A stretch of DNA of 63,669 bases, filler included, from Klebsormidium nitens (taxonomy: Eukaryota > Plantae > Klebsormidiophyceae): the NCBI GenBank assembly GCA_000708835.1. It is 6 parts of 6 records of this genome, joined end to end, with 100 filler letters (N's around TTAATTAATTAA, not from the genome) between each part and the next. Parts side by side here need not be neighbours in the genome. Positions count along the whole stretch, not along the records: positions 6,312 to 15,933 come from DF237087.1; 5 more parts are not named here. One strand, written 5' to 3'. A program made the position numbers and the translations under genes. Every line of letters starts with the position of its first letter. The stretch's first letter is position 1. Below are positions 3,001-25,400 of the stretch, in pieces. Below the pieces are notes generated by a model, which searched no databases, had not been told where the DNA came from, and worked only from the letters and a program-made list of their open reading frames with translations.

Positions 3001-5290
3001 CCGTCCCCTCCACCCAACGCCTGCGGCGCAGCGTGCGCAGGCACAACCTCTTTTCCTTCAGCTTGCAGCGCCCCCGTTTCCGTCAACTGCCCGCCTTCCC
3101 GCTCTGGCTGAGCTGCCCAAAAGGTTTTCGACCGCTTTGGCCCCCGTCCTGAGCAACTCGGGCCTCCCGGCTCCTGTCTTCCTCTCTTCCCCCGACCTCG
3201 CGCGCGCCAGTCCCGACTTGGCAGCACCCGTTCTCGCAAGTCCTCCGCTCGAAATCAGCCCCTCCGAAGAGCTGCTGGTGCTGCTTGCAGAAGCACGAGG
3301 CCCCTTTGCAGCTTGCCTCATGGGGCTCGCCCACGATAAGCTCCATCAGGTACCGTTCGACCGAAGACAGGTCGGANNNNNNNNNNNNNNNNNNNNNNNN
3401 NNNNNNNNNNNNNNNNNNNNNNNNNNNNNNNNNNNNNNNNNNNNNNNNNNNNNNNNNNNNNNNNNNNNNNNNNNNNNNNNNNNNNNNNNNNNNNNNNNNN
3501 NNNNNNNNNNNNNNNNNNNNNNNNNNNNNNNNNNNNNNNNNNNNNNNNNNNNNNNNNNNNNNNNNNNNNNNNNNNNNNNNNNNNNNNNNNNNNNNNNNNN
3601 NNNNNNNNNNNNNNNNNNNNNNNNNNNNNNNNNNNNNNNNNNNNNNNNNNNNNNNNNNNNNNNNNNNNNNNNNNNNNNNNNNNNNNNNNNNNNNNNNNNN
3701 NNNNNNNNNNNNNNNNNNNNNNNNNNNNNNNNNNNNNNNNNNNNNNNNNNNNNNNNNNNNNNNNNNNNNNNNNNNNNNNNNNNNNNNNNNNNNNNNNNNN
3801 NNNNNNNNNNNNNNNNNNNNNNNNNNNNNNNNNNNNNNNNNNNNNNNNNNNNNNNNNNNNNNNNNNNNNNNNNNNNNNNNNNNNNNNNNNNNNNNNNNNN
3901 NNNNNNNNNNNNNNNNNNNNNNNNNNNNNNNNNNNNNNNNNNNNNNNNNNNNNNNNNNNNNNNNNNNNNNNNNNNNNNNNNNGACCCTTCGGCTGAGCCT
4001 CCCTCTTTCGACTCCGGCGCCCGTTCCCTCCCCTCCTTTCTGTCCGTTTCGAGCAGCCAGGCACGTGCCCTTGCAAGTCGATCCTCGGAGAACAAGCGGC
4101 CGCTCAATCGCTCGATGCTTCTGCCCGGATTCCGGAGAGCCTCCTTGACAGCGCGGATGTGGTCGCAGTCTGCAGACGTGCTGCAGCCCGACTGCTTGCC
4201 CTGGCAGTACCACTCCTCACCCGCGCCCTCATGCTTGTGCACCATTGTGCGCTTGGGCGAAGGGGAGGCTGCGTTCCAGTAGACGCCAAAGACCCGCTCA
4301 GCCCCTCTGCTGCACGGAACCTCAATCACCCGGCTGCCCTTCTGGAGCGCAACGTGGCTGGCTAGCTGGCGCGACCCCAAAGCCGCGAGCGCCAACTTGT
4401 GGACGCATGGAGCATCCGGACCCAGGCGCCCGCGGTCGCAGATGCAGCTGGCCTTCCCCAAGGTGTCCCAATGGACCGTTTCGAGCAGGGCGGTGGACTT
4501 GCTCGGTCGTCCAAGTGGTTNNNNNNNNNNNNNNNNNNNNNNNNNNNNNNNNNNNNNNNNNNNNNNNNNNNNNNNNNNNNNNNNNNNNNNNNNNNNNNNN
4601 NNNNNNNNNNNNNNNNNNNNNNNNNNNNNNNNNNNNNNNNNNNNNNNNNNNNNNNNNNNNNNNNNNNNNNNNNNNNNNNNNNNNNNNNNNNNNNNNNNNN
4701 NNNNNNNNNNNNNNNNNNNNNNNNNNNNNNNNNNNNNNNNNNNNNNNNNNNNNNNNNNNNNNNNNNNNNNNNNNNNNNNNNNNNNNNNNNNNNNNNNNNN
4801 NNNNNNNNNNNNNNNNNNNNNNNNNNNNNNNNNNNNNNNNNNNNNNNNNNNNNNNNNNNNNNNNNNNNNNNNNNNNNNNNNNNNNNNNNNNNNNNNNNNN
4901 NNNNNNNNNNNNNNNNNNNNNNNNNNNNNNNNNNNNNNNNNNNNNNNNNNNNNNNNNNNNNNNNNNNNNNNNNNNNNNNNNNNNNNNNNNNNNNNNNNNN
5001 NNNNNNNNNNNNNNNNNNNNNNNNNNNNNNNNNNNNNNNNNNNNNNNNNNNNNNNNNNNNNNNNNNNNNNNNNNNNNNNNNNNNNNNNNNNNNNNNNNNN
5101 NNNNNNNNNNNNNNNNNNNNNNNNNNNNNNNNNNNNNNNNNNNNNNNNNNNNNNNNNNNNNNNNNNNNNNNNNNNNNNNNNNNNNNNNNNNNNNNNNNNN
5201 NNNNTGGCGCGCCATCGGCATGACAGAGCTCCTTGCTGTCTGAAGGCTGGGCGCCTGATGCGGAGGGGTCTTCCTGCACACAAGAGGATT
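1..5290 (-). pseudogene. KDZ (Kyakuja-Dileera-Zisupton)/HMGXB3-like transposase, partial (runs off the window, three N gaps), with an in-frame stop
   Basis: Two SWIM-like fingers at about 4100-4450 (KASCICDRGRLGPDAPCVHKLAL and WYCQGKQSGCSTSADCDHIRAV). Cys clusters at about 2900-3370. CxC-like VRFYCCGCPLKHTVHFNGEALGLYAW at about 2050-2120. KDZ catalytic-start motif ECCSLCGPHPDVLLCDG at about 1790-1845. Phase-0 GT-AG intron 1487..762. The same frame continues past a TAG at 132-134 to the window edge. Confidence 0.75.
1260..1437. repeat. Short MITE-like element, copy 1, in the intron of the KDZ gene
   Basis: TGGCACC...GGTGCCA inverted termini around a core TTTCAATCATGGAACTTTCA...CAACAAAACCTGAACGAA shared with 5635-5815. 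Confidence 0.65.
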
Positions 5291-5634
5291 TGAAGTGAGC
5301 CACTGCAATCAAGCATAAGCTACCCTGGCCAAGGCGACTAGCCGGCAGTGGAACATCAAAAAAGACGCTCACACAAATTGTGTTAGCTTCCACCCGGATT
5401 TCACCAAAACTTGAGCCACTGCCAATCAAGCATAAGCTAACAAGTGGAATTGCCGCACAAGGTACTGACCAAATGGCACAATCCTCATGTGTTTTCGATT
5501 ATATTGGACTTGCTGGCCACAAAACGGTGTAAAAAGCTCTTGATTTAGTAAATTGCAATCAGTTTCTTGTGCATTTGAGAGAAAAGTTGACCAATGAGCT
5601 GCTCTTTTGTACAGTTGTTAGGTGGTGGAAGCTT

Positions 5635-5815
5635 GACACCTCTGGCACCTTTTTATATATACTTGTAAAGTATATTACTACGCAATTGCACTGCACAACT
5701 TTTTGCAGCGTGGCACCTTGGCACCTTGGGCACCTCACTTTCAATCATGGAACTTTCACTCCAACAAAACCTGAACGAAGAAAAAACAAGAGGTGGAGGT
5801 GTCCAGGGTGCCATC
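5635..5815. repeat. Short MITE-like element, copy 2
   Basis: Direct-orientation homologue of 1260-1437, with stacked GGCACCTT motifs and GGTGCCA at the right end. Confidence 0.65.
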
Positions 5816-6255
5816 CAAAATGAGAGCATCATCATCAGGGCGCGTCAGCTTTCTGAGGGGTCAAAGCCAAATCAGAACCTCACTGCACATTTAAGGACTC
5901 ACATGCAACTTGCGCTTGACGTTTGCTCCAGCAGTGTTTCCCCTGTTGAGCGCGCTCTCTGCAGCGGATTTGACTACCTTGCCTGTAACTGACTGTCTGC
6001 TCAATGCATCCTGCACTGCCAAATTCTCTATGTAACCGCCTGTAAGCTCTTTGACCTGCTTCCAGAGAGTCCCCTTCGATTCGCGCTTGAACCACGTTTC
6101 ACTGGTCGCCTGCTTTTGCTGAACTGTAACTGACGTCTCAGTCAGATGAACAATGCCAACCCAGCGTTGTACGCAAGAAAGACACAAAGGCTGCGCGCGC
6201 TGTTTGCTTTTNNNNNNNNNNNNNNNNNNNNNNNNNNNNNNNNNNNNNNNNNNNN

Positions 6256-6267
6256 TTAATTAATTAA
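6256..6267. other. Assembly linker TTAATTAATTAA inside an N run (also near 15978, 27712, 48641 and 61106)
   Basis: An identical 12-mer giving stops in all six frames is embedded in five N runs. It is artificial. Confidence 0.95.
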
Positions 6268-6311
6268 NNNNNNNNNNNNNNNNNNNNNNNNNNNNNNNNN
6301 NNNNNNNNNNN

Positions 6312-6680
6312 GTGAGGTTCGTTTCGGGCCTGCTGTGGGCCTGGTTTTCGGGGCTGGTTTTGGGGCCGCCGCTCAAGTTGGTCTTGGGGAGCGCGGTCAG
6401 GCTGGTTTTGTGCCGCGGTTAGGCTGGTTCTGGGTCTGCTCTGGGCCTGGTTTGGGCCTGGTTTGGGCCTGGTTTGGAGCTGGTTTCGGGGCTGGTTCGG
6501 GGCCGCGGTCAAGCTGGTCTTGAGGGCGCGGTCAGGCTGATTAGTCTTGTGCCGTGCTCAGGCTGGTTCCGGGTTCGTCGTTTGCTCTGGGCCTGGTTTG
6601 GGGGTGGTTTGGGGCCGTGCTCAAGCTGATTTGGAGGCGCAGTCAGGCTTGTCTTGTTCCGTGGTTAGGCTTGGCAGGCA
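6312..6680. repeat. Low-complexity GGGCCTGGTTT/GGGGCTGGTT-type tandem repeats
   Basis: Repeated gggcctggttt, ggggctggtt and gcggtcaggctg units. Related units recur at about 9230-9480 and 9987-10070. Confidence 0.7.
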
Positions 6681-6851
6681 GCCCGGTGTAGCTGGAGCGC
6701 TTTCTTTTGAAGTTACGTTCCAAGTGCTGTCAGACATGTGGCCTTGCTGGCAACAGGGGCGTTGTAGGGTTGCAAGCCTCATCGCTGCATGCCCGACCCC
6801 GCTTACTCTCAAACATGAGTTCTAACCCTTTCTATTGTCTTTTTGGCGCAG

Positions 6852-9800
6852 GCGCTGGTGACGGACGCTCCCATCCCAAAAGTCGGGGCCCTTGTCGACC
6901 GCCTGAGAGCCAAGGGGGACGCCGAAGAGGCGGCCGCACGAGAGAAGCGGCTGAAAAGGTATGGGCGCGTACATCCCCTTGGTGCTCCCCGTCGGACGAG
7001 GGGTGCCATGGCCTACACCATGGACCAGGACCCGAGCCCGTCTTCCCCTCTGCCCTCGGTCGGCCTCCCTTTCCGGGAAGAAGACCCCGCCTTGAGCGCA
7101 GCGCAGCCCCCCACAGCAGCCCCCTCTTCACCGGTCGTGGAAGATGAACGGGCCCCGCCGTCGCCGCCGGCTGACCAGTCCCCCGTAGACGAGGATCCGG
7201 GTTCGGTTTCCCTCTCGCAGCCCCATGAGCCCCCCTCTCCCACCGGGCACCCACCCTCTCCCCCCCTTGCTGACCAGCTCCAGGAGCCCCTGGTCGCAGC
7301 CCCGCCCCCTGTCGGAGATGCACAGCCCGAGGTGGTCCCCGGTCAGCCCCCAGCAGCCGCCCCTTCCCCTTCTCCCACCCACCAGGAGCAGGCGCCCGTC
7401 GACCAGGCGCTTGCGCCCGACCTGCCAAACCAGCCCCCGGCAACGGACACAAGTCAGCCCACTGCAACTGGGCCGTCCGCAGAGCCGTCGTCCGCACCTC
7501 CGCCCATGGAGCCGCCCGCGCGGCTGCTAAGGGAGCCCCCTCAGGCTGCGTTGAATGGAGATAGTGGGCCCGGCTGGTGCAAAAAGCTGGAGGAGGCGCT
7601 ACAGCAACGGCGGGCAAACGGGCGTGCAATCGTGGTAGCGGAGGATGTGCACGAGGGGGGGGCAAAGCGCTACGGCAGCTTGAAGGATGTCGCGGCCTTG
7701 GTCGCGCACCGGAGGTCGCTCGGGCCGTTCGCGCACCTGTACGAGGTCATCCAGGACGATGCATGCTGGCGCATCTACTTCGACCTGGACTTTTCGCTCC
7801 CAACCGAGGACCCGAGCGACTTCGAACGGCGCCTGGAGGCTTTCCACCTGGTCAGAAACCGTTTTCTAACCTCGGTGCTGAACGTTCCCGAGGGTGCGCT
7901 CCGCTTCCAAGCTTGCGAGGCGCACGGTCAGCGCGGCCCCCGAAGCAAGAGTTCAAGTACAGCGTGCACGAGGTGCTGGAGGGGTTCTGCCTGAGGGGGC
8001 TGGAAGCCAGGAGGGCATTCGGGAAAGCTTTTGGGTGCTTCTTGGAGAATCCCCCGGACGACCTAAAGCCGAGCATCGAGCTCTTGCGGAAGGACGGCGG
8101 ATCCGCCTACATCTGGGACGGGTCCGTCTACGGGCAACATCGCTGCTTCCGAATGCTCAGGTCCTCCAAGTTCGGGGACCATCTTCGCGCCCTCGTCCCC
8201 TGCGAGGGCAGCTCCGAGGCGATCGCTGACCAGCTTGTTTGTCTTTACACGGAAGCGGAGCTGGCTGGTTCCACCGAGATCAGCGCCGACCTTCTCAGAG
8301 AGTGGGCGACCGCGCGGCGCGACCCTCCTGCCCCGGCCCGCGTGGGGGCCTTCCGGCAGAGGGCGCTCGCCCTCGACGAGGCGAACACCTCGGAGGGGCC
8401 CGGCGAGGACCTGAGCGCGCAAGAGCGGGCCGTCCTCCTCGCCCAGCTACCAGGAGGACCACGCAGGGGCCGAGGTCGACCGGGTGGTGCAGGAGCGGCC
8501 GGGGCTGTTCTTCGTCCACTTTCGCGCGCCTCAGCCCACGTGTTGCATCGCGGGCAGGCGCCACACGTCCCCAGGCAACCAAAACCCGTACCTGATCTAC
8601 AAGCGAGACGAGCCGCGCATCGCCCGCTACCAGTGCTTTGCCAACAGCTGCAGGTAAGGCGCCCTTGTAGTGAGCCGAAATCTGAAAAGCGCCCAGCATG
8701 GCTCGGTCGACAATCTGCACTGGTCGCTCTTTACATGCGAGTTTAGAAGGTGGTGCAGATTGTCGACTCTTTCAAGGTTGACCGGCTCAGCAAATTGGAG
8801 AAGCATCAAGCATGGCTGTGGGCTGTCAATTTGCACAAGGGTCTAAACACCGAAGCCTCTTAAACCAATGCAGATTGTCAAGCTCTTTGAAAGCTTCTCT
8901 GAAACTGGTCTTAGCAGTTTCAGAGAAGCACCAAGCATGGCTCGGCCGTCAATTTGCACAGGCCATTCTTTACATTCATGCTTGTAAGTCGGTGCAATTT
9001 GTCAAGCTCTTCGAGTTGGATCGGCTCTGGATCGGCTCTGTACTTCAGGAAAGCGCACCGCTTGGTTCGGCCGTCAATCTGCACAGGCCGTTCTTTACAT
9101 TCACTCTTGTAAGTCGGTGCAATTTATCAGGCTCTTTAAGTTGGATCGGCTTTGTACTTCAGGACGGCATGTTTTGGTCGTCGATATGCACAGGTCGTTC
9201 TTCACATTGAAACTTAGATGGTACTATTCTCAAGGCCAGGGTCAGGTTTCAGGCATTTTCAAGGCCACGGTGAGGCTGCTTTTGCTACGCTGTGGGCCTG
9301 GTTGCGGGTCTGCTGTGGGCTTAGGTTCAAGGCTGCGGTCAGGCTGGTTGGGGGGGCGCGGTCGCGCTTTTTTTGAGGCGCGGTGAGGCTGAATCGGGAA
9401 GGCTGTAGTCAGGCTGTAGTCAAGCTTCTGCGGGCCTCGTTCGAAGCCGGAATCCGGCTAGGTTAAGGGCCTTGGTCAAGCTCTCTTGAGGGCGCATCAG
9501 ACTGGATTCGGCCGACTGGTCTGACTGACATTTCGATACCTCGCATGGTGTAAGGTGCTTGGGCTGTTGTTGAGAGCGCCTCTTGTTCCCTCTTTGCAGG
9601 GGCGAGTGCCGCGTGCTACCCCTGGACATCCTCACCACGCTGGGATGGACGGAGGACTACGAGGAGAACCTGGGAATGCGCTCCTACCCCGCGTTCAAGT
9701 TCGCTCACGTGTGCAAGCGAACCATCCTGATTTCGGCCAAGAAGGGGGTCGGAAAGTCGAAGGAGTTCATCGCGTGGCTGGAGGCCAGTTGAACCCCGGC

Positions 9801-12800
9801 CTCTCCTTCGTCCTGATCGGGGCTAACATCTCGCTGTCCCGCAAGTACCATGAGGATCTGGTGGAGGCGGGCGTGGAAGGCGTGGTGCTGTACCTGGAGG
9901 CGCCCCCGGGGCCAATCGCCGCCTCTCGTGCCGTCATCTGCATCAACTCCATTCACCGCGTGCGCGNNNNNNNNNNNNNNNNNNNNCAGTCAGGCTGATT
10001 TTCTGCTGCTTTGGGCCTTGTCGTAGCCATAAACGGGCTCGGTTTAGGGTCGCGATCAAGGTTGCGCTACTGAGCCACGTTACTTTGATTGAAAAGAGTG
10101 GCCGGCGTATTCGACAACCAAACGTGCACCAACTGCTTTGTCTATTGAATCGAGTAGTCCCATGGCGTAGGTGCTTGGTATTTTGCTGAGTAATGCCTTT
10201 CGCCTCCTCTTTGCAGGGGCGAGTGCCGGGTGCTACCGCTGGATGTCCTCAACGCGCTGGGCTGGACGGAGGACTACGTAGAAAACCTGACAATGCGCCC
10301 CTACCCCGTCTTCCGGCCCAGTTCTCTTCTGCGCAAGCGCACCATCTTGGTCTCGGCCAGAAAAGGAGTCGGAAAGTCCAAGGCCTTTTGCCCGTGGCTG
10401 GTGGCCATGGTCGAGCTCAATCCCGGCTTTTCCTTCCTTCTGATTGGGGCCAATATTTCTCTGTCCCTCAAGTACTACGAGGAATTGGTGGACGCAGGCG
10501 TGCAAGATGTCGTGCTTTATCAAGAGGCGCCCCGAGGGCCAATCACCGCCTCTCGCGTCGTCTGCTGCATCAACTCCATTCACCGCGTGCGCGCCAGCAT
10601 GGACCTCGTCTCGATGGACGAGATGGACATGGTGCTCAGCAACCTCAACTCCGAGGTCATGCAACAGCGGGGGCGGGTGTTGTCTTGCCTTGAGGGCCTC
10701 GTGGAGAGGGCAAAGGTCGTGATTGGCATGGACGCCAACATCGACTGCGCACGGGTGATGGAGTACCTCTTCATGGTCCGGCCGGATGGGGGGCTTCACA
10801 CCATCCGGAACACGGGCCTGTATCCGGCCGAGAGGCGGGCGACCATCCGGATCTTCCCGCCAGAGAGCGGGCTGCTCAAATGCATCGGCGCCGCGGTGCA
10901 GGATGTCCTGCACCGTGTTGCTCGAGGCACAAAAGTCGTCGTAAGTTCTTACTTCACCAACCTAAACAGCTCTTTGCACAACGCGCTTGATTCCATTCGT
11001 GTGATCTTCTCAAGCACTGTGAGTGAGGGCCTGTTTGAGGTATAGGGTGAGACATGTGAAGCATCTTCCCTGCGTGTCCGCCTCGTGGATTCAGAGGCAG
11101 GTTTGTCGTTGAGCGGCTCTCTCTGTGAACATTTCGCTATCTATGGAATCTAGGGGGCACTGTCTTGCCAAGCATTTGCATCTTTTGACTTCAGCGAACA
11201 GGTTAGCGAACAGGTTTTCTGTACTTTCTGCAAGGGACCGTCGGGTGCAATTTGTCGGAGGCTCGTCCAATCAATTGTATAGTGTCTAGCAACCACCCGG
11301 CATGGCCCGTGACAATTTGCACCCTTGTTCTATACATCAAAGTTCATAAGCCAGTGCAATTTGTCAAATGTTCAATCAACCAATCACAAAGATCAGGGAC
11401 CACCTCGGCATGGGCGCAGATTGTTTGAAGCTTGTTCGCACCATCTGCTTTTGCCTTGCGGTCTAAAACTTAACAAGGATCGGTGCTCTATGCTTTTTGC
11501 GCAGTGCCCGTCGACCTCCAAGCGCTTCGTGAAATATCTCGAACACGAGTTCAACGTTGAGAACCCACCCGCCGAATCCGATCGACGCGGCATCTTCCTG
11601 CACGCCGACAAGAGGTCGAAAGCCGACGAGGAGTTCTTCCAGAAGGCGATGGCCGAGCCCGACACCTACCTGGAGGCGGACTGCGTGGCTTTCTCTCCGA
11701 AGCTAGGCCCAGGGGTCTCGAAAGAGAAGCCATACGCCGAGCAAACCGTTGCCTTTGCCCTCAACAACCTCAACGGCCCTCCCGTTGAGACGCTACTCCA
11801 GCAGCATGCTCGCTTCCGGACGGTGACTGACTCCACCATCTACTACAAGCAGGTGTTCACGCCAGCAGTGGACCTGCCGCGCTCTACAGAGGCGGTCTTT
11901 CAGGCGATCGAGCGGGACGACAGGCAGATCGTCCATATGCTCGGTGACGCCTCTGGCTTTCACTTTCTGAGAGGTTCGCAGGGCATCTGCGACCGATCCT
12001 CAGCGAGCTGCGTCTTGTACGCGAACAACATCCTCGCCAAGGTGGAAAGCTACTTTGAGTATGTGCCAAAGCTGAAGGCCGACCTGGAAAAGCAGGGCTA
12101 CGAGGTGACGGTTGAGCATGTCGAGCCACGGGTGGGGTTGCAGAGCTGTTGAGTTGCTAGGCTGTTTGTGTTTCAAAGCTGCTCTGTCTTGAAGCAAGGC
12201 GCTTTCTGACTGGTTGCAGTCCATTCATGTGAGTCCCTTGTCACGCGCTGATCAAACTCCGAAGATGACACGTGTTGCTTTGTAAGGGCGAGATTGTGAA
12301 ATGTGTGAGAGTCTGGCCTTGCAAAGCGTCAAGTCTTTTTTGAGTCGAGATCGGATGTTGTTGCTAGCCCTACCAGCATTGCTGAAACGCTTTCCCTTCC
12401 TCGCTTTCCCTTCCTCAGAATGATCAGCGTGTCTCACCATTTTCTTCTAGGGCATCCTGGGGCGCCCGCCCCCAGACGTACCTCTCGGCTTCGATGCGGA
12501 GCCAGAGCTTCTGGCCGACGAAGAATGGCGAGCCAAGTACATCATCGGTCCGGACCAGTACGAGATCCTGTGCGACAGGCATGAGGACCTGAGCCCGAGG
12601 GAGCAGCTCCAGGAATTTCTCTTCGAGATGGTCACGAAGGAGTACAAGGTCGACCCTGGCCGGGTTGATCACGACTTTTACGTCCGCTTTTGCGCTGACA
12701 CGCCCGAAGCAAAGCGGACAAGAGAGGCTCACACAAACTATCTCAGGTGAGTGTCTCCTTCCAGCCGCGCCCCGTTTCAAGCAGAAAGCAAAGTTCTCTG

Positions 12801-13592
12801 GCCGCCAACAACTTCCATCGAAAGTGATCGATCCTCACGTTCTGAAGTTCCGGTTTTGTAGCATCTGTCCAGGGCAACTTTGCAAATCCACTTTTCATTT
12901 CCGAGTTTGAAGCATTTGTCTGAAGCACAAGTGTCTCCCTTCTTCTCTATCCATCTGCATGGACGAGGTACGTGTGATCGTCGGTTTGTTGCCTCTTGAC
13001 ATTTGTTGTGACTCGCAGATTTCGTGAGAACCGCTTCAACACCCTCGCCATGGACCTGGACAGAGCACTCGAGCAGGTCAACAAAGCGGGCGTAGTTCAG
13101 GAGTACGTCCAGGAACAGCACCACCCGCTCAGCCGTGTGCCGTTTGCGGTGCGCGTCCTTGCCTTCCTGGTGGACTGCAAGGAGGAGGAGCTGGACCATG
13201 AGGCAGAGCGGTGGGAGGCTTCGGAGGAGCGCGTGCAGGCTGTCTATGCGGAGCTCATCGGGTCTAGCAAGAGCCGGCTAAAGACCATTTACAACCTGTA
13301 TGGCTTTGTGCAGCAGACCTCAAGGCCCACGCAGGCTGCCGATGGGAGAGAGAAAGAGAGCAAGGCTCAGAAGCGAAATGCAGTGGGGAACGTGCTCAGA
13401 GCGGGCCTTGGAGTTGAGCTACAGAAGGGCTCAAAGAGTGGTGGCAAATTCAAGCAACCCCACTCGTTGACGCCCGCAATTTGCTTAGGATTGCATGAGC
13501 GGTATCGTTCGTTCGAATTGGACATGGACGCAGGGGCTGAGTGCACAATTGAGCCGCTAGAGGTGTTAAGCTCCCAGTTTGAGAGTTTATGA
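6852..13592 (+). CDS. AEP primase (PrimPol/NCLDV-herpes clade) + Zn-binding domain + UL9-like SF2 origin-binding helicase fusion; 5 modelled exons, 2 frameshifts in exon 1
   Basis: Exons 6852-8653, 10217-10940, 11505-12131, 12451-12746, 13019-13592, all GT-AG with matching phases (about 1340 aa; start not located). Primase motifs HLYEVI..RIYFDLD, FKYSVH, WDGSVYGQHRCFRMLRSSK. Zn domain CCIAGRRH...YQCFANSC. Helicase motifs ILVSARKGVGKS, VCCINSIHRV, MDEMDMVLSNLNS, VIGMDANID, FSPKLGPGVS, LLQQHARFR, which parallel UL9 APMGSGKT, VESLHRV, LDEV..TLGQLYS, IIAMDATAN. Frameshifts in C runs at 7937-7941 and about 8442-8444. Confidence 0.85.
8690..9200. repeat. Palindromic minisatellite family 1, about 5 units of about 110-125 bp, in intron 1 of the primase-helicase gene
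   Basis: Each unit has (C)GTCAATYTGCA ... TGCARATTGTC in inverted orientation about 33 bp apart. Confidence 0.8.
9600..9966 (+). pseudogene. Diverged, frameshifted duplicate of helicase exon 2
   Basis: Same acceptor context TTTGCAG|GGGCGAGTGCC as 10217. Encodes GECRVLPLDILTTLGWTEDY...KKGVGKSKEF, then a net 7-nt deletion relative to 10217-10590. Ends at an N gap. Confidence 0.8.
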
Positions 13593-13789
13593 ATATGCAT
13601 TAGACTGAGCTAGGTTTGAATAGCATCTTACGAGACCATATTTATTATTGGCCTTATCAATCAAACTGATTGAAGAGATGCATTGCTTTGAAGGTTCCCA
13701 TTTGCATTGAAAGGTGTTGCAATGAGACAAGTCGCCTAAGCTCGCATGACACACTCGCCAAAGAGGCAGGCCGTGCTCTACTTAGGAAA

Positions 13790-14270
13790 TATGCACTGCT
13801 TTGACGGGTGCGAGCTAAGCCGTCAATTTGCATGGCTATTTGAGGATTGCTTGTATAGAACCGTTGGTGCAAATTGACGGGCCCATGCCGGACACTTTCT
13901 TTGATGAAGATTGTAAGAGACGGCACTAAAAGTTGCCGTCAATCTGCATGGTTATTCGAGGATTGCTTGTATACAACGATGGTGCAAATTGACGAACCCA
14001 TGCCGGACACTTTCTCCAATAAAATGTTACGAAACAGCACTTTAAGGAGCCGTCAATCTGCATGGCTATTTGAGGATTGCTCGTATGGAACGATGGTGCA
14101 AATTGACGGGCCCATACCGGACACTTTCTCCAATGAGATTGTAGGAGACGGCACTTTAAGGAGCCGTCAATCTGCATGGCTATTTGAAGATTGCTTGTAT
14201 AGCACGATGGTGCAAAGTGACGGGCCCATGTCGGACACGTTCTCCAATGATTTCGTAAGAGATGGCACGA
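13790..14270. repeat. Palindromic minisatellite family 1, 4 units downstream of the helicase stop
   Basis: Units start at 13820, 13936, 14050 and 14164 (periods 116, 114, 114). Each has CCGTCAATYTGCA ... TGCAAATTGACG. Confidence 0.9.
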
Positions 14271-14419
14271 AGCGGTGTTGTGAAGGCTTGCATGCTGATG
14301 GATATGTCAATGAGGCCTTTGCACACCACTGAATTAAGGCGTCAACCCTCCTTAAAGCTCGCACTTTGCATACATACTTAAGGGTAGAGTTGGGCTGATT
14401 ACCTACCAACATTCTTTCA

Positions 14420-14824
14420 ATGGAGCAGCTTCCAAGTGGACACATGCTATGTCGAGCGGTTGGGGTCAGCTTTGAAGGCCGTCAGGACCTTGTTCGCAAG
14501 CTTCGACCAGGCCAGGAGCTCGTGCTTCAAAAGCATTTGGGAAATGGTCATGATACATACGGCATAGGTATATTCGACCCCACAGATCGTGTGTTGCCTT
14601 TAGGGTTCATTGGGCGCGACTTCAAGCACCATAGAGTGTTTGATCGAGTCCGCAAAGGGATAGATATGCGAGCACGTGTGCATCGCATAAGTCAAGGCAG
14701 AGGTCGTTACGGACCGTGGGGATTCATGGTGGAGATCGAAGACTCTAGCACAGTCTCTTGCACGTCTCACGATCCCGCTCCAAATGACATTGTTTGCGAG
14801 ATTGTTATCCAGAAGCGATCTTGA
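14420..14824 (+). CDS. Stand-alone HIRAN-domain protein, 134 aa
   Basis: AVGVSFEGRQDLVRKLRPGQELVLQKHLGNGHDTYGIGIF...LGFIGR matches the HIRAN pattern vaGvsf..r...l..L..g..l.L.rep.N.yD..AI.v....lGyvp. Confidence 0.75.
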   Translation: MEQLPSGHMLCRAVGVSFEGRQDLVRKLRPGQELVLQKHLGNGHDTYGIGIFDPTDRVLPLGFIGRDFKHHRVFDRVRKGIDMRARVHRISQGRGRYGPWGFMVEIEDSSTVSCTSHDPAPNDIVCEIVIQKRS

Positions 14825-14949
14825 GGGCATGGTGCAAAGACTCGTTTGTCATTGAGTCGGCACAAGAAAGGTATAAGTCTCAGGTTGAGGAATGGGTTGA
14901 GATGCAAAGACATACGCACTATGTACTAATCGTTCGCGTTTTCTGCTAG

Positions 14950-15516
14950 ATGTTGGTAGATGACATGGATGCTGTTCTTGAATACCAGCCATCGACGAGT
15001 GCAACCATAAAAGAAATGGACAGAAACGTTTTGAACGCAGCCAAAACAATTATAATCCGTTGCTTCAAAGAGTTCAACATGCTCGACACAATTCTGGATG
15101 TGGGTGCCCTTGCAGGAATGCGTGCGCTCGTTGGCCCCTATGATTTGAAGCATATTACTAGAGCTCTTACTCGAGCACTCGTAGCAGACGGCTTTGACGC
15201 CTATTGGGAGAAGTTTGGATTTCACGGCCCATTCTTTATCGTCGTAAGTTGGCGGATGGCGTTAGAAGATGCCAAGCGTGCTCGCCATAATGCTCGCCAC
15301 CCAAAAGCTCAATCAGAGTCTATCTTAAGGCATCGAGGAAGCCGGATAGCTTTGCCTCAACACAAGAACAATGAGGCGTGTTCTCAACTTTCCAGTCGTG
15401 CCCCTAGCTTGATATGGGAAGATCATGATGAGCCGGTTATGGGCCTTGAGCTACTAGCAAACCCAGAAAAGGTTCAAGGATTACACGGCTCTCCCAAATC
15501 CCTCTCATCTGGATAA
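14950..15516 (+). CDS. Hypothetical protein or exon, 188 aa
   Basis: Open frame with globular-looking composition, preceded by a possible acceptor TTTTCTGCTAG. No motif recognised. Confidence 0.35.
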   Translation: MLVDDMDAVLEYQPSTSATIKEMDRNVLNAAKTIIIRCFKEFNMLDTILDVGALAGMRALVGPYDLKHITRALTRALVADGFDAYWEKFGFHGPFFIVVSWRMALEDAKRARHNARHPKAQSESILRHRGSRIALPQHKNNEACSQLSSRAPSLIWEDHDEPVMGLELLANPEKVQGLHGSPKSLSSG

Positions 15517-15780
15517 AATACCAAGCCAAAGGCTTCAGTATTCGAAAAGTGTACGCTGATATTCATAGTATCCAGGACTGGTCAGTTTTCTGCAGAAAAT
15601 CGAGGTTGAGTCTTGGGTCGAAGTCAGCTTATAGGAGCTTTTGTAACCAGATAACCATGAAAAGCCTCTACGTATCTCAAATTCGTCATTTAAATCCTGA
15701 ACGTGTATATTCATATTATCTAAGACGGGCCTTTATTCCCTTGTTAAAATTTTCTCCGCTAGTATCCAGATAAGCTGACA

Positions 15781-16368
15781 ATGCAAGGCTGTGAGAAGAA
15801 CGCACGACTCATAACCATAGTTACCGAAGGTCAACGTCTCTTGCGCCAGGTATTTGATGACGGTACTCGCAAAGAGAACACTCTTCAGCAATACTGCAAC
15901 CATGTGATGAGACTGTTCCGTGGGTTTAAGGGGNNNNNNNNNNNNNNNNNNNNNNNNNNNNNNNNNNNNNNNNNNNNTTAATTAATTAANNNNNNNNNNN
16001 NNNNNNNNNNNNNNNNNNNNNNNNNNNNNNNNNAGACCCTGGAGCAGATCAAAGAGGTCTTTGCTCTCGGCGCCATGATCGATCCAGAGACTCTAAAGGC
16101 AGCAGGGAGCTTCCAGGATGCAGCCGCATGTGCAATCACACGCCTTTACAAGAGGCGCACATGCAACGACCCAACGGATCTATCCTGGCCGTGGCTGTTT
16201 CGATGGTTCATGCGAGCTGGGGGGTTCGAGGCCTGGTCGACCGACGATGTTATTGAATTCTTCGACGAGTTTATGAGCAGTGAAGTGGGCAGATTTGAGG
16301 AGTTCAAAGGCAAGCTTTCCAAGCGCATCTGCCGCGCCGCAATTGAGGATTGTCGCTGTGGGCACTGA
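15781..16368 (+). CDS. Hypothetical protein spanning a gap
   Basis: Protein-like frames on both sides of the linker gap (GTRKENTLQQYCNHVMRLFRGF and MIDPETLKAAG...WPWLFRWF...FFDEF). No family recognised. Confidence 0.3.
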
Positions 16369-16869
16369 CCACTCTACTGACGCTTGGCGCGGTCGGCGGG
16401 GCCTGCCACTGGGGTTGAGCAGGTTGCACTGCAGAGCGGGCCATCACCTCTGCCACCCAGTTCGGGTTCGATTGCTGAATGAGAAAGGAATGCACGAGTC
16501 AACACCAAGTCCATTGACTCTTCCCATATGCCAGCTCTCGAAATGCATGGGTGCAAACGAATGAGCGTGCTCAATGATAGCATCTCACACAAATAGTCGG
16601 ACAGCGACTGAAACTCACGCTTGCTCGCCATGCATCAAATGGCTCGATGCTGACTGGCTTTGACCTGACGCTCTCTTGAACCTCCTGCATGACACGGATT
16701 GCCCAATTATTCGTCAATCGTGAATCACCCGGACTATATCGACGCTTTGTGGATGCCGGTGAGAAGGGGCATGGTGATTCTGGGAAGTGGCACTTGTGGC
16801 CTGGCAATACTTCGTGTCATCGTGGGATGGAGGCATGAGGCAGAAAGTAACTTTGCATGGCGAATAACT

Positions 16870-19800
16870 TACCTCTGCTGTCGGAAGGTGAATCAGGGGC
16901 CGCCTGCGTGAGCTGCTCAGGGCGCCGGGATCGTGTGTGGGCCACCCCGGGTTGCTCTCCACGCCCCCGATCATCAGTTGTGTCGCTGCATCGCACCAAA
17001 GGAATCCCTCAACCAATCGTGCTCAGAATGGCATGCCCTTCAAGCCAGACTCGCGCATTCAAAGTCTAATCGTGTTCAGAATGGCAAGCCTTCAGGTCAA
17101 ACCCATGCACTCGCTGTCCTATCGGCAAAGCCAATTGAGAGCCTCTTCTTGCCAACAAATGCCAGAGATTTGCCACCATACCTATCAGAGCCCTGCTCTT
17201 TGGTGCCGAAGAGTAGAAGACCTTCTCCGACCCATACTCGTAGGCTGACAATCCTGCGCGGGCAGAAGGCTGGGGGGTAAGAGACGAGAGACCTGCCACG
17301 ATTTCAGCGGTCCTGCGAACATTCGGGATCTTACAAAGTAAAGGCTCGCAGCGCGGCAAAGGCTCACACCGTTGCGCAGGGCCCGGCCATACCCTGCAGG
17401 ATGTACCAGGAAACGCCCATTAGATTCTATAGAAAGTAATACAGCGTTTCTTGGTACATGCCCACTGTGCACTGGATTGTCGGATCATGCGCTTGATGGG
17501 CAAGGCCGGCCATACCCTGCAAGATGTACCAAGAAAAGCCCCTTAGATTCTTAAGAAAGTAATACAGCATTTCCTGGTACACGGCCCTTCACTCTGCAAA
17601 GCCTCACACCGTTTTTGGGGGCGGCCATACCCCACAGGATGTTCGAGACCCCCCAGCCATACCCTGCAACTTGAAAGCGTACCAGAAAACGCCCATTTGA
17701 TTCTTAAGAAGTAATACACACTTTCTTGGTACAAATCCCGGCACTCTGCAAAGCCTCACACCGTGTTGGAGTGGCCCCGACCATACCTGCCAAGTTTCTA
17801 TCAGAAAAGGCCAAGCATCTGACCCGGCTTTTGACGTCTGAGAGGGAAGACGTGGCAGTTCCCCAGCACTGCCAAATCCTACCACGAGATGGACACATAC
17901 CAGTACGTCGCTAAAAAGAAGGTTCGTTGCTCACCTTGGAATCCGCTCCTCGCCAGCACGCTCACCGTGGCAGCGGGCTGAACCCCAAACCTGGTGCTCC
18001 CGCTTGAAAGGGCGCACAGGCCCTCTGCGCGACGGAGGACGAGAGGCTGCCCGGGCTGCGCATCGTCACTGGCGGCGTGCGGATGGCAGGCTGCGCCACG
18101 ACCGCAGTCCGACTTGGAGTCGCTGGCGATCGCACGGGGGACGGTTCTGGGGTTGTGGCGGGCGCCGCGGTCAGCGCACACGGACTCTGCAAAAAGGCGA
18201 TCAATGAGTCAGAACAGTGCACTGGGGATGTCGCAATTGACCTGCCAGGTACCCTCGGATTCGTGCGACAGGTCAAGGGCATGCACTCTGCCCTGGCCAT
18301 ACCCTTCAAGATCTGTGTACCAAGAAACACCCAGTAAGATTCTTAAGAAGTAATAGGTTGTTTCTTGGTACATGTCCGTGATGAGCTGCAAAGTCGACGT
18401 ACCACCAAAAACGCTCTTCCTTCCACTGCTTTTGGGGCACGGCTTTAAACAAACCCCTCCACCAATCATCTGTGCCCAACCTCACAATCCAAGATTTGAA
18501 TTTGTGGCGCGATCACTTTCAATCTACAAGCCATGGGTCGCTCGCCGCAGCGCTGGAGTCAGCCTCCCCTTCACAACTTTCGGGCACTCACCTGCTGTTG
18601 CCGTCCATGACTGAGGAGCAGTACGTGACCCGGGGCCCTTCTGATGCCGCTCGCGTTCAGGACAGGCAGGGCTCGCCTTCCTTCGCGCCTTCTCGCGCGC
18701 CTGAACCCATGCTGCAATAAGAAAAGGATACCTTTGATCAGCGCGGGGGTTGCCGGGCCTGCAGCCATGCGAAGACGTGCACGATTCACAGTCGGATTGC
18801 TGGTTGCTGCACCCAATTGAGAGGTGTGTGTCTCAGGACTCTTACCCGCGCGGTCCTGGTCGATCTGGAAACAGCCCTTCGTTGGCCCATGGCTCTTGCA
18901 GTAGTATCTGACGCCCCCTCCCTCCTTGCTCCCGCGTAGCCCATACTCTGCGGGCGTGTCGCACTCGCGGCAATGAAGGGCATGTGGGTCTGAAAAAGAG
19001 ATGAAGGCAAAGAGAATCAGGGCCAATCACGTACCCCACACACCTGTCTCGCAAGACCGGCCATGCCACCAAGTTTGGGTGCTGTACCAAGAAATGGCCT
19101 GTTGATATCTAAAGAAAGAATTGGCCAGAAGTTGGTACACTTCCCAGCCATGCCATCAGTTTTTGGCGCTGTACCAAAAAGTGACCGATATTCATCTCGA
19201 GAAAGAACGGGTCAGATCTGAATCCACTTCCTGCGCACGCCCAGGCATGCCATCAACTCTTGGTGCCATTGTTATGTTTGGAAATAAGTGGTCAAAACCT
19301 GGTACATTCGCAAGTCACGCCCAGCCATGACATCAAGTCTTGGCGCTGTACCAAGAAATGACCCATTGGTATCTTACAAAAGAATTGGTCAATGCTTGGT
19401 ACTGCTCCCTACGCATGCCCAGTCCTGCCTTAAGCTTCTGGCGCCCTTCTTATATGGTCAAACCTGGTACAACTTCAATGCAGACCCAGCCATGCCACCA
19501 ACTTCTGGCGCTGTACGTAGAAATGGCCCATTAGTATCTTTAGAAAGAATTGGCTAAAACTTGGTACACTTCCCAACGCACGCCCAGCCATGCTACTAAA
19601 GATCTGCTGCTCATTTGATGAAGGTTTATTGAACCGCTGTTCTGAAGGTCCAAAGAACACTCTTTTCCTGAAACGATGGTATGTCTAATGGCACAAATGT
19701 CCTGCTGATTACTGGAAATGAAAGTGAGCCTTGATACACCTCCTTGCAGGGGCAGCAATCAAAGATCTCCTGACCTTAAGAGTTGGCATTTGAAGAAGCA

Positions 19801-20146
19801 AACAATCCGCCTTTTGCTCACCGCGTTCCGCGACGCAATTTGAAACTTCTTCGAGAACCCGCGGATCCTGCCGCTTTGCTTTCTGGTCAGCAGCGCGGAA
19901 GCGCCGGCCTCGTGAAACCTTGCAAGCAGGCTGCCCTTCATCTTTCAATTGCTTTGACCTTTGGCACCGCCGGCGGCGAGGGGCAGGTGCGTCATCGCTC
20001 TGCGCATTGACAGCAGCGATCAAAATCTCTTGCCTCTCTGCACTGATTGTGATGCGCTCCCTATACTCTGCAGCACGCGCAAAGCGTGCAGCCTGGCAGA
20101 CCCTGTGGTCAGACTTGGACCTGCCACAAGGCCGGCTTCTTGCCAT
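16870..20146 (-). CDS. Multi-exon hypothetical gene with one EsV-1-7-like Cys/His motif; boundaries approximate
   Basis: AG..GT-bounded exon candidates at about 18989-18846 (HCRECDTPAEYGLRGSKEGGGVRYYCKSH), 18712-18592, 18190-17935, 17330-17175 and an upstream ORF 19709-20146. Repeat arrays fall in the predicted introns. Confidence 0.45.
17340..17800. repeat. Palindromic minisatellite family 2 (GTACCAAGA...TCTTGGTAC)
   Basis: About 4 units of about 110-120 bp, each with inverted GTACCA/TGGTAC ends and a central TTCTTAAGAA palindrome. A single further unit lies at about 18310-18375. Confidence 0.8.
19050..19600. repeat. Palindromic minisatellite family 2, diverged array
   Basis: Repeated GGCGCTGTACCAAGAAATG...AAGAATTGG...TTGGTACACTTCCCAGCCATGCC units. 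Confidence 0.75.
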
Positions 20147-22407
20147 TACTTATCACGCATTAGCTCCGCTGGTCACAGCTGCAAATACACATAAGAGACT
20201 GAATCAATTTGCCCACAGCAACTGAAGCACAAACCAATTCAGAGCAGACCCACAGCTTCGAAATTTCGAAGCAGAGCAAAGCAGATTAGTTGGCCCCAAA
20301 GATTGATTGGCCCAAAAACTCAAGCACCTCCGAAGACATGCTTTTGCTAGATTCAACTCCCGAGTATAGAAAACTGCCATGACGCAATCACTTACCCCAA
20401 GCCTAAACCACTTGGCGCTTGGTGCTTGCAGCACTTTCCTGCGGGCATGCTGGCAGTGTCAAGCTAGAGACTAGAAGGGGCAGCTTCCTCAGGCTCGAGG
20501 GAACAGTCCGGTCCGGAGTAATAATGGTGCCCTTACAACAGGTCCTGCCGCTCGAGGGGCTGATTTCCGGGTGCCCGGTAGGACCTAGACTCACGTACGG
20601 CAGCTGGGGAACTGCGTCACGGTCGGGCTTGAGACCATCNNNNNNNNNNNNNNNNNNNNNNNNNNNNNNNNNNNNNNNNNNNNNNNNNNNNNNNNNNNNN
20701 NNNNNNNNNNNNNNNNNNNNNNNNNNNNNNNNNNNNNNNNNNNNNNNNNNNNNNNNNNNNNNNNNNNNNNNNNNNNNNNNNNNNNNNNNNNNNNNNNNNN
20801 NNNNNNNNNNNNNNNNNNNNNNNNNNNNNNNNNNNNNNNNNNNNNNNNNNNNNNNNNNNNNNNNNNNNNNNNNNNNNNNNNNNNNNNNNNNNNNNNNNNN
20901 NNNNNNNNNNNNNNNNNNNNNNNNNNNNNNNNNNNNNNNNNNNNNNNNNNNNNNNNNNNNNNNNNNNNNNNNNNNNNNNNNNNNNNNNNNNNNNNNNNNN
21001 NNNNNNNNNNNNNNNNNNNNNNNNNNNNNNCCGGGCAGGTACCGGTCGCCGACGGGCGGTCCGACCGGAAAATGCTGGGTTGTTCACACTACCATCTGGG
21101 CGATCACTGGCCGCCAGAGTCGGGCGTCCGCAGCAAATTTCACCGTCGAGGCGGACGGTACGAGGGACCTGCCATCGCCGGCCGGAGTTTCTTGGCGGAA
21201 CGACCTGGCCTGGCCTGCCGGATTCGCGGTTTTCAGGCATTGTGTGAACAGTGTATCACCCAGGCAAGACGCCGGTTCGAGTGTTTACTGCTGAAGTTGG
21301 CCGCTGACGTCATCCAGAGGAGCCTTCCTTCGACCCCATGTCAAATGCTTGGACACCATGTGTGTTGGACGTGTTTGCACTATCAAATTGAACGCGTAAT
21401 GATTGGTACGGTTGATGACGTCATCGATTTGGAGGTCAAGACGACTGTTTCCCAAACCCTCAGATTGCTTGGACACTCTCGTATGCACTATCAAGAGCTC
21501 ATGCAAATCAATAGCAGCACATTATGATAGTATGGGGGATCATGTCATCGGACTGAGGGGCGAGAAGTGTGCTTCCATAAGCTTGGAAAGCTTGACTACC
21601 TTGAAGAGGTTTGTAGCGCATAATGTTTGGTATAGTTGATGTCACTGTCAGTCGAGATGACATGTCCCCATAGAATTGAACAGCTTGGTCACTTTGGACA
21701 GTCTCGCGCTCTCAATCGTAGTGCGAATAATTGGTATGATTGACAACGTCATTGATCTAGGGGTCGAGACGACTTTTTCCGAAACCTTGGACAGCTTGGA
21801 CGGATTTGCGCTGTTAATAGCTCAAACACCCTTGGACATTTGTGCCCTATCAATCATAGCGCATAATGTTCGGTATGTTTGGTGAGATCGTTGACTCGGG
21901 AGTCGAACAGTAGTAACTACAAATAGTCTATACAATCTGACGACTATAGCTGTGAGCAAGGGTATTCTTAAGTATGATATCACTATTTACTTGCATCACT
22001 AGTGTTTGCGATTATATCATTTGAACGGAGTGCATACCTCAAACTAAGTTTTGGGATATGCAGCAACAGGCACTAAAATCACATGCATGACTATCGGAGG
22101 AGCTGCCCAGGGGCAGTCGTACGTTGGCCTTAAACTCTGTCAATAAAGGTTGCCAACCACATTTGACTGCACATATATTCCAAACAAGAAACCGAACCCT
22201 TCGTGTCACTTGCGTACGAAATTCTGACTCGCGGCAAATCTGGAATATATTCCGGCATGTAACGTATATCAGCAGTCAAATCACAAGCTGTCAAAGCGAG
22301 AGCACATGTCAGACCGCTGCACTTGATGTCAATCAGCATTCTCCAAGCGGAACCAGAACCTTTTGAACGACCAGCTTGCCGTCCATCTACTGATTGATTG
22401 TCTTCTT

Positions 22408-25400
22408 TTAAGGGGGCTGGGGAAGAGAGGGCCGTCGGGTGCCGGGAGTAGAGCTGGGAGGGGTCGTGAGCTTCGAAAGAACCATTTTGGCCTCCTTGCG
22501 CAAACCCGCTACAGAAATTTCCCTATCCCTTTCCCTATCCTCGAATGCGATCCGTGCCTTTGCCCCATTTTCTTTGAAGAGAACTTGCACGACGTGCACG
22601 TCCTCAACACCCTCGGGGGGCCCGAAGTAGTCTGTGGCGCCCCTCTTGGCAGCCCAGTACGCTGACACGTGGACGACCACTGTGTGGCACGTCTCGACTC
22701 GTCCGTACACGTCGGCGGCGTGCAACTTCGGGTACCCACGTCTCATGTGCTCCAGGATGTCGGCCCTCCCAGCGAACGCAATCAGCTCGATCGCGAAGGG
22801 CCTGATAGTCCCAAGCCGATGTGGAAGGGGCCAGCAGAGGAAGTCGATCCGTCTCCGCACATTTCCCGAAGTAGTCGTTATGTTCCTGGCCTCGGCGACT
22901 AGGCTGTGGAGAGGCAAAGGACACATGAAACAAACACTGAGAGGATATTTTACATGCTGAATGAGGGATACTACGGAAAATACTAGACACACTGACTTCA
23001 CTTTTCTCTGCTTATGACGTCAAACAGTCTAAGGAAAGATTATCCTTGAGAAAGAATGGCAAGCCCCTGAGCATCTTTTCCCTCTTGGCCTGTCCATTCT
23101 CTTCCTGGGCACTGAAAAGAAGATGCATACCGAAAAGGTCGAAAAGAAGACCTTACACTTCAACAACGGCCGACCAGACAAAGAACACAAGGAGATGGCT
23201 TGGCAGAGATATGCAGGGTCGACATTCCTCACCCACCCTATGAAGTGCAGGCGAAGGAAAGATGAAAGAAGGGGCCAATTCTCATACCTGAAGAATTGGA
23301 CCTTTTCGGTCTTCCGGAGCAGCTGATTCAGTATCAACCAGAATTGGCCTTGCAGTGCGTACTCCGACGGCTCCCCCGACACGTTTGCTGCTTTGTGACA
23401 TGCAATGGTGGCCCAATTCAGGTTGCGCACCGTCTGCAAGGCGTAAACAGGGTTGTAAACACCTGAAGAGTCAACATTCGTGTATGGACGCAAAGGTTTT
23501 CAAATGCACAACCTTTATGCAGCGCACTCAACAATGCTGCCTAGAGTGGAAATTTGCTGGTTGGACAGGTGATATCAGTGTGGTCCAGAAACTGCATCGG
23601 ATTGTGCCAAGAACCAGTGTCGGCTTTATCTTAAATTTCGGTGTACAGTGCGCTTTTACTGGCGATTGTCATGGAAAGAGCCAACTTGAAATCGGCTTGC
23701 TTAAAAATGGTGCCTTGACTGGCCTTGCTGCGAGTCTGGAAAAAAAGTGACATGATTGGGTGCTCATGCTTGAACTGAGTCAACTTCGTAACACCCGCCT
23801 GATTTGTGAAGCTGCACTTTGCATTGTGGCGTTCTAGTCACCGTCCCACAAAACTTGGACCCGCCGGAAGGGCAAATGTACACCAAGGGAGGGTTGGCCG
23901 TATCTAACACTATGACATGTCTGCGAACGAACAAGATCCCAACACATTGAAGCTTCCGACTATTATTCAAAGGAAAAGCTTTTCTAACGAAGCCACGTTA
24001 CCTCAATCACAAGGAAGTCGATGTACTCCAGGTACTCTGCGGGGGCAGGCTCGCACTCAACCACGTCGCGCACCATGTTCGAGAAGATGCAGCTGCTGAT
24101 CAGTGGGGATGCGAGCGCGAGGGTCACCGGGGACTTCGCCTGGGCGACTGCCGCTCTCCGGTAGCCAAACTCGCTCGATTCCCCATGCGGTTCTTCCACA
24201 AGAACTCCTTCTGCTAGCAACGGCTCTGCGATCTCTTGCACCTGGTCAGCTGGCACAGTTGCGGTTCCATTATAGAGGACGGAGCTGAGGAGCTCGAGCT
24301 GGGCTGGAGTGGCTTGGAGAGCACTCTGGACTGTGGCTCGAAAGACAGTAGACTGAGCGATGTAGGCAGGCAGGTCTGTCCTAAGGTATTGCAGCCACTG
24401 CTCTACGACGAGGGGCCCGTCTAGATTCTTTTCTAGAAGCTGCTTGGTCTGCAACGCCATGAGGCACGCGATGGTCTGGCCCTTGTGGCCCCTGGTTTTC
24501 TCGAAGATGGACTCTGCGATCCTCTGCAGGTCCTGCAGCGCAACCGGCCTCTTCGCGAGCTCCTCTCTGCACAGCTCGGCGTATTCTTCCAGCAGCTGGA
24601 CGACGTCTTCAATAGAAAAGCGCCTGAGGCCCCTGATCACTTCAGGACCTGTTGCCAACAGGAACGGCGACGTCCGGAAAATGGCGCTGCAAATGAAGAA
24701 TATAGATTGAAGACCGGCTCAGGTTGGACATTGAGCCACTGAAAACAGACGTACACGGAGGAGAAACCAGGCAGAGTGAAACTCGGCTTCATAAGACACT
24801 ACCCACTTCTGAGCGTCGTTCGAGTCGATAATGAGCACTTCAAGTCTTATCAAAGACCTGGTGACTATCCATTCTCGGCAAAACCGCAAGTAATGACGAC
24901 TTCGACTGACAAGGCACTTTTGACCCTTGAAAGCATCCGCTTCTTCTGCTACATAGCAAAGACCACCTTCTGGAGCAAACCGACTCAACCAGGACAGGAT
25001 GTGCGCACGAAAAGTGTGTTGGTAACTGAGCAGCCAAAGGTCAGGATACCAAGACGTAACCATTTTGAAAGACAAGCTTACACTCTGCCTTTATGACCAA
25101 GCAATGAGCTAGTCAACTATTCAAGAGTGACCAGACGGCATGGTTTCCAGAGCCTTACCCAGCAGGCCCCGGTCTTCCCTCATTGAGCTCGTCAACAATC
25201 CGCAGCACCGTGAAGGTGCCGAAGAAAGCGACTGAAAGTAGCCGGTGCTGCCTGCGCGTGGCGGCCTCGCGCAGGTCCCGGAAGCAGTGCATGAGGCTCG
25301 CACGGTTCATGATGGAGGCCTTCGCCAACTCGGAGGCTTCATCGACGCACAGCACAATCAAGGGATCAGTCGGCCTGACCCACTGGAAGAGGCTCGCAAA

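Follow-up and report, generated by a model that had tools for sequence, protein, structure and literature searches.

A spliced and transcribed family of primase-UL9-type helicase fusions in the nuclear genome of Klebsormidium nitens, represented by two tandem paralogs

Proteins that join an archaeo-eukaryotic primase (AEP) domain to a UL9-like helicase of superfamily 2 (SF2) are reported, in the passages of the cited sources that deal with them, from mimivirus (R8), ASFV (the African swine fever virus; pF1055L), ostreid herpesvirus and mriyaviruses (SF2_hel) (bioRxiv 2024.02.29.582850) and from SmDNAV (10.64898/2026.08.29.747986); the primase-helicase fusion is catalogued as NCVOG0024 (PMC3493329), and parts of two further papers treat such fusions in general (PMC4889955, PMC5862659). 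Here we describe a related gene family in the alga Klebsormidium nitens, starting from positions 6852..13592 of a 63,669-nucleotide stretch of its genome assembly, hereafter the window, where an initial annotation had recognised a single polypeptide fusing a PrimPol-type primase, a zinc finger and a UL9-like origin-binding helicase, encoded with four GT-AG introns. The PrimPol-type primase, the C-H-C-C zinc site and the UL9-type SF2 helicase are real; the locus, however, consists of parts of two tandem neighbouring paralogs (copy A, 6852-9966, and copy B, 10217-13592) of one spliced, transcribed nuclear family.

The viral enzymes of the R8/F1055L type have the same domain order as the Klebsormidium family, their AEP and SF2 motifs are intact, and the folds match over the whole length. 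An N-terminal AEP and a C-terminal SF2 helicase closest to UL9 are found in the family, both in one polypeptide in 9 of 11 K. nitens models, although not in the window, where exon 1 and the exon at 10217 belong to different genes. Unlike the viral type, the Klebsormidium family resides in the nucleus and its genes have spliceosomal introns; it comprises many paralogs, with a proline-rich linker of some length and a module at the N terminus that bears a 2A-like motif, no viral core gene lies nearby, and identity to environmental virus-type proteins is only about 20%. A nuclear gene of Ectocarpus encodes an origin-binding protein (OBP) with the same fusion of AEP and UL9-like helicase, likewise in an algal nuclear genome, as one complete open reading frame beside viral repeats, with a proposed role in replication of the resident virus; its zinc domain is missing, and introns, expression and family expansion are not described in the part of that report concerned with the gene (PMC2373305). 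UL9 itself, which acts as a dimer, recognises origins and unwinds DNA according to one account (PMC13483431), is the best match of the family helicase in both sequence and fold, but it is without an active primase, and the sequence likeness is confined to the helicase lobes. Cellular PrimPol resembles the family in having a primase domain followed by a C-H-C-C zinc site, but it has no helicase. The contrast with herpesviruses drawn initially makes too much of the surprise, the fusion being known from giant and other large DNA viruses.

Giant-virus inserts of several different kinds are reported from the K. nitens genome (PMC5294986), and methylation is reported to be enriched in the viral fraction of that genome (PMC12344493 and its preprint), as far as the relevant sections of these reports go. 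We found no paper on a primase-helicase family in Klebsormidium, although subscription papers and supplements may mention one. The fusion design is known already; its intronised, expressed and expanded form with a 2A-like module appears to be undescribed. Most algal viral inserts are reported to be silent and methylated, and a viral primase-helicase that acquired introns early, is still transcribed and has split into old subfamilies is a clear candidate for domesticated viral replication machinery or for an unrecognised nuclear replicon, here in an alga closely related to land plants. A search for endogenous viruses that takes no account of introns, as one study says of its own (10.1101/2025.04.19.649669), would miss such a family, which also offers a tractable, non-pathogen source for the study of the R8/F1055L-type enzyme.

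Domains, fold and fusion of the family

All of the motifs named in the initial annotation were located by motif scan. The AEP motifs in window exon 1 are YFDLD (7776-7790), KYSVHE (7955-7972) and WDGSVY (8114-8131), and motifs I-III are intact there as well as in the paralogs P0002, P0006, P0157, P0164 and P0206; the zinc ligands lie in CCIAGRRH (8541-8564) and YQCFANSC (8628-8651). In the copy B helicase, Walker A occupies 10356-10379 and Walker B 10614-10631, and motifs III-VI reach 11819. The proposed check with hidden Markov models came out differently for the two halves: the helicase exon at 10217 matched PF02399 (Table 1), which also scored above cut-off in 6/6 family models, whereas the primase part gave no score with the Pfam PrimPol and UL52 models and was detected solely via a family profile and fold comparison. 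With the profile, built from 63 relatives, herpes simplex virus UL9 was matched at E 5.6e-51; of the primases, human PrimPol reached E 5.3e-17 and the D5 primase of poxviruses E 1.6e-10. Second to UL9 among SF2 families was UvrB, at E 8.1e-6, so that no other SF2 family competes with the UL9 assignment.

The predicted structure of paralog P0002 (pLDDT 82) gave UL9 as its top four matches in the PDB (Foldseek alignments of 755-794 columns, root mean square deviation 16-19 A) and PrimPol as the match of its N-terminal domain, with a TM score of 0.64-0.69 by target over the primase domain. Its best viral matches were origin-binding proteins of giant viruses, namely Dasosvirus, Bodo saltans virus, Marseillevirus, Catovirus and Pyramimonas orientalis virus, over ~1,100 columns and with E down to 1e-43. 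The domain order is primase, zinc site, UL9-type helicase and a helical C-terminal region.

At the level of the family, the fusion that had been proposed is borne out both by the nine fused models and by RNA contigs in which the zinc and helicase exons are spliced together. At least 11 K. nitens models, on ten scaffolds by locus tag, belong to the family, and ten of them, when compared pairwise, are 33-87% identical (best pair, 87%). Among 143 relatives of at least 600 residues, 97 have a primase-profile match ahead of the helicase, with profiles built from 17 of the same proteins, which argues that the primase-helicase fusion is the usual form among relatives.

Two neighbouring paralogs, their splicing and the 5' module

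Within the first intron as originally read, from 8653 to 10217, the helicase exon occurs a second time (9600-9966, with 77% identity to the exon at 10217), and an assembly gap comes after it. A single intact gene, with the 9600 exon as a duplicate in its first intron that is either dead or used as an alternative, would agree with the matching phases and GT-AG ends, with a gap written as only 20 N and with the joint 8648/10212, which is indeed present in RNA-type contigs. The contig with this joint, however, has letters other than those of the window at 8606 and 8624, and three further differences stand beside the joint to 10217 in a loose end of run X5; in every run for which letters are given, the contigs joining to 10217 differ from window exon 1 at five places in ~70 letters. 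These foreign upstream letters indicate that the exon joined to 10217 belongs to a paralog other than copy A. Contigs of the 9600 exon, on the other hand, start with the window's own exon-1 end: X1, X8, X11 and X13 show it as a loose end of 13 letters, and in run X19, which is labelled as an organism other than K. nitens, 8653 is joined to 9600 by a contig with 82 letters on one side. Identity to P0206 is about 90% for both exon 1 and the 9600 exon, against 77% for the corresponding stretch of the 10217 exon. Altogether, the foreign letters at the 10217 joint, the window's own exon-1 end on the 9600 exon and the P0206 identities establish two paralogs, and a single gene, whose exon 1 would in addition carry a real frameshift, is highly improbable. 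Neither the single polypeptide nor the RNA junction predicted from 8653 to 10217 thus survives for this locus, while three of the four predicted introns do, one of them mostly retained (Table 1).

The DNA contig that enters the gap from the right runs on as an intron-like repeat, not as coding sequence. The public K. nitens model KFL_001380250, part of which the 10217 exon matches without a difference, is corrected by our analysis: the model is chimeric, its first 37 residues being the 9600 exon in a shifted frame, and copy B with three introns removed has an open frame of 739 codons that matches it exactly from residue 38. The intron tails of copies A and B remain 75% alike over 60 bases, which argues that the copies arose by duplication at the DNA level.

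Nor is the locus intact, both copies showing signs of decay. Directly 5' of the copy A primase exon lies an AG acceptor (6850-6851), which points to more 5' exons outside the contig piece; the exon is 83-98% identical to the paralogs P0206 and P0005. A frame change near 7928, where 4/4 runs have one extra base, stems from faulty assembly. The additional base at 8445, by contrast, is present in RNA contigs of X1, X8 and X13 (3/4 runs), the contig over this position spanning 8314-8501 with zero differences and zero gaps, and this frameshift is real in that strain. In X1, X8 and X13 the reading frame of the 9600 exon is lost after 9786, while in X19 it is kept; beyond 9966 the remainder of the copy is lost in the gap. 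In the sequenced strain, then, copy A is transcribed but broken.

The primase exon upstream of copy B lies outside the window. The copy B intron with the weak donor is crossed unspliced by one contig in each of X1 and X5, and X11 has both forms; the stop in the unspliced frame would remove the last ~290 residues. Transcripts of the family occur in RNA-type runs from five studies, with introns and flanks empty. None of these runs is recorded as RNA, their nature being read from the splice joints and empty introns, and because contig depth cannot rank genes we claim transcription and splicing, not level. The proposal that a virus-type fusion was intronised and is expressed from a nuclear genome is supported by these joints. 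Just 3' of copy B, at 13818-14268, stand 3.9 copies of a 114-base repeat, which are related, though inverted, to repeats that the gene's introns contain and are without RNA-contig cover.

Upstream of the primase, P0157, P0167, P0005 and P0206 carry the motif LL(M/I)xGG(V/I)ESNPG. In P0157 and P0206 a cysteine-rich motif precedes it; an EsV-1-7-type identity was considered for this motif, but Pfam and Atlas gave no support (best Atlas score, 0.76); the 5' module as a whole had no family match in either. The ending GVESNPGP in P0157 and P0167 fits the non-canonical 2A core GxExNPGP, whereas NPGW in P0005, P0206 and the window does not fit it, and GxExNPG occurs in 3/204 proteins scanned, all three of them family members. 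The canonical core is GDxExNPGP; per the passages on 2A in two papers, the non-canonical core is accompanied by upstream leucines (PMC13405545), and 2A-like motifs are a feature of viruses and retroelements but do not by themselves prove ribosomal skipping (PMC3708506). Exons homologous to this module lie at 16874-20149, in another scaffold piece beyond a 100-base spacer and with an unsure orientation relative to the copies; they may represent either a 5' end that has been displaced or an incomplete third copy.

Table 1. Features located in the window
Feature	Position	Strand	Basis
Copy A primase exon: proline-rich linker, AEP motifs I-III, C-H-C-C zinc site	6852..8653	+	Motif scan, RNA contigs
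Copy A intron, GT-AG, 946 nt, phase 2, with 125-nt tandem repeats	8654..9599	+	Joint 8648/9595 in X19; loose ends in X1, X8, X11, X13
Copy A helicase exon, first half, cut by gap	9600..9966	+	Walker A 9736-9759; 89% identical to P0206
Assembly gap, written as 20 N; splits the two paralogs	9967-9986		
Copy B helicase exon: Walker A, Ia, Walker B, III	10217..10940	+	PF02399, E 1.5e-18
Copy B intron, GT-AG	10941-11504	+	Joint 10940/11505 in 3/3 RNA runs, 0/1 DNA run
Copy B exon, helicase motifs IV-VI	11505..12131	+	Motif scan
Copy B intron, weak donor GTGGGG, mostly retained	12132..12450	+	Stop in frame 12150-12152
Copy B exon, start of helical C-terminal region	12451..12746	+	RNA contigs, relatives
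Copy B intron, GT-AG	12747-13018	+	Joint 12743/13016 in 3/3 RNA runs, 0/1 DNA run
Copy B last exon, C-terminal region	13019..13592	+	Stop codon 13590-13592
Exons like the family 5' module	16874..20149	-	tblastn to P0157, P0206; motif scan
MARSRP exon of the module	20149-19913	-	
Cys/His exon of the module	18990-18844	-	
2A-like GGVESNPGW of the module	about 16968-16942	-	
SWIM/CxC4 KDZ-type transposase, in pieces between gaps	1-5300	-	
Host WD40 protein gene	34457-34792	-	Pfam
Host SMP/PH-domain protein gene	41801-47732	-	Pfam

Origin, possible role and competing explanations

Separate trees of the two domains, as had been suggested, each place the Klebsormidium-type rows in one clade and leave the donor unplaced. 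In the helicase tree (FastTree; 165 of 193 rows kept, with 15 near-duplicates and matches of <150 residues left out) the clade has 21 rows and a Shimodaira-Hasegawa (SH) support of 97, and in the primase tree of 41 rows it takes in 8/8 rows with an SH-like approximate likelihood ratio (SH-aLRT) of 99. The join of the family with phage-type rows in the helicase tree was taken as a meeting of long branches and was not used. The nearest outside row there is P0019, an uninterrupted relative of 1090 residues on a 3.9-kb contig, family-like over its full length including the C-terminal region, and it is the best lead to the donor lineage. Of 17 exon-sized relatives, 11 share a KVV boundary at which their match to the 10217 exon stops, down to 37% identity; read in this way from protein ends, the intron appears older than the split into subfamilies. 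Between the two window exon copies, the ratio of nonsynonymous to synonymous substitutions (dN/dS) is 0.25 over 120 codons, and subfamilies are found again in other sources at >=90% identity, one of them with K. subtile transcripts. The top Atlas cluster for P0002 has 268 members, and its recorded taxa, taken from few members, are mostly eukaryotic with Mucoromycota commonest, which suggests that fungi, too, may often carry nuclear copies. Among viral contigs, no close relatives were found with P0002, P0026, P0019 or the exon alignment as queries; a profile of environmental relatives detected 68 loci, among them a full-length relative on one 234-kb contig and distant relatives on several 346-376-kb viral contigs, most other loci being phage-type helicase matches. 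Scans of metagenome contigs gave zero confirmed relatives of the family.

Our preferred reading, with a probability of roughly 0.5, is that the family goes back to the capture of a single primase-helicase of giant-virus type, which the alga has retained as a putative nuclear DNA-unwinding and priming enzyme. A viral replication initiator would have been captured long ago and intronised once, before the family split into subfamilies, with copies since born by DNA-level duplication and then subject to decay, as copies A and B illustrate. By analogy with known families, the SF2 part would hydrolyse ATP and open DNA like UL9, the AEP part with its zinc site would lay primers on the strand thus exposed, and choice of the DNA site would fall to the C-terminal region; judging by sequence features, a basic KKRRKR-type stretch may bring the enzyme to the nucleus and the 2A-like motif may free it from the N-terminal cysteine-rich module. 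Fast copy turnover fits a role in conflict better than housekeeping, which would make the DNA of the giant viruses repeatedly inserted in the genome the likeliest target, the enzyme acting as a decoy or controlled initiator; repriming of stalled host forks would be the second option. Several observations weigh against capture and retention by the host. The neighbourhood is rich in transposon-type genes, and a mobile unit shared among paralogs is possible; both window copies are damaged, copy A by frameshifts and copy B by its mostly retained intron, and P0003, P0004 and P0167 are partial or frameshifted, all of which also fits a selfish element. Moreover, the UL9 profile match stops at position 723, before the UL9 C-terminal region, the 41 rows of the primase tree include no cellular PrimPol, and the deep branches of the helicase tree are unresolved.

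A tentative and broader formulation, which we hold at clearly less than even odds, is that of a spliced, polyprotein-style family released by 2A from its N-terminal module, which could be either the engine of a new self-copying nuclear element or a host weapon that seizes giant-virus origins. The first of these alternatives, in which the gene would be the replicase of an unrecognised nuclear selfish element that binds its own origin, unwinds, primes and reinserts via host or borrowed enzymes, with introns and 2A-like polyprotein belonging to its nuclear life style, seems to us possible but doubtful. It would account for the dispersal of at least 11 models, a young and fast-growing subclade, frequent broken copies, the 2A-like motif ahead of the primase in 4 models and the transposon-rich surroundings; yet no terminal inverted repeat encloses the window copies (none in 5300-21600, a region cut by gaps and spacers), 0/18 relatives of the KDZ transposase share a scaffold with a family member, the deep subfamilies are apparently single-copy and conserved across sources, and no two named models are near-identical. 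Retention by the host is favoured over a selfish replicon because old subfamilies persist, copy number is low and no mobile-element anatomy was found. That the copies are functionless, decaying remains of giant-virus genomes that had inserted here, with read-through as the source of their transcripts, would suit the inserts present in K. nitens (PMC5294986 and PMC12344493, in the sections noted above), the damage to both window copies and the closest named folds, which are those of giant-virus origin-binding proteins. This explanation is largely refuted and improbable, given spliceosomal introns common to subfamilies of 37% identity, exact splicing, the low dN/dS and the lack of any viral core gene in the window.

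Surroundings of the copies

Pfam searches of 224 frames over the 63.7-kb window gave 0 matches to capsid, polymerase, packaging ATPase or integrase, and with host genes present the window does not qualify as a giant endogenous viral element. It is made of scaffold pieces separated by five 100-base spacers (N44, TTAATTAATTAA, N44) at 6212-6311, 15934-16033, 27668-27767, 48598-48697 and 61062-61161, across which the order and orientation of the pieces are unreliable. The KDZ-type transposase at the left end has 18 relatives in K. nitens at 50-93% identity, in a search over proteins of 414-2000 aa (7995 candidates), and the KDZ family is, on these predicted proteins, abundant in a streptophyte alga. 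That the primase-helicase is cargo of a KDZ transposon was considered and rejected, none of the 18 relatives from this search lying on a scaffold with a family member.

Other features of the window were noted in passing. An 84-base inverted repeat of 97.6% identity spans 51335-60377, enclosing about 9 kb with long frames, and the unit is possibly a DNA transposon; a frame near 57.7-58.6 kb, with no Pfam match, presumably resembles an Ulp1-type protease. The multi-exon gene at 22400-26100 (- strand), also with no Pfam match, encodes a P-loop ATPase with a nuclease-like end, which we take to resemble Crinkler-type ATPase-nucleases. Finally, a tandem pair of genes for acidic proteins, at 37523-38143 and 39616-40437 (+ strand), is 72% identical in DNA and gives weak DUF7336 matches.

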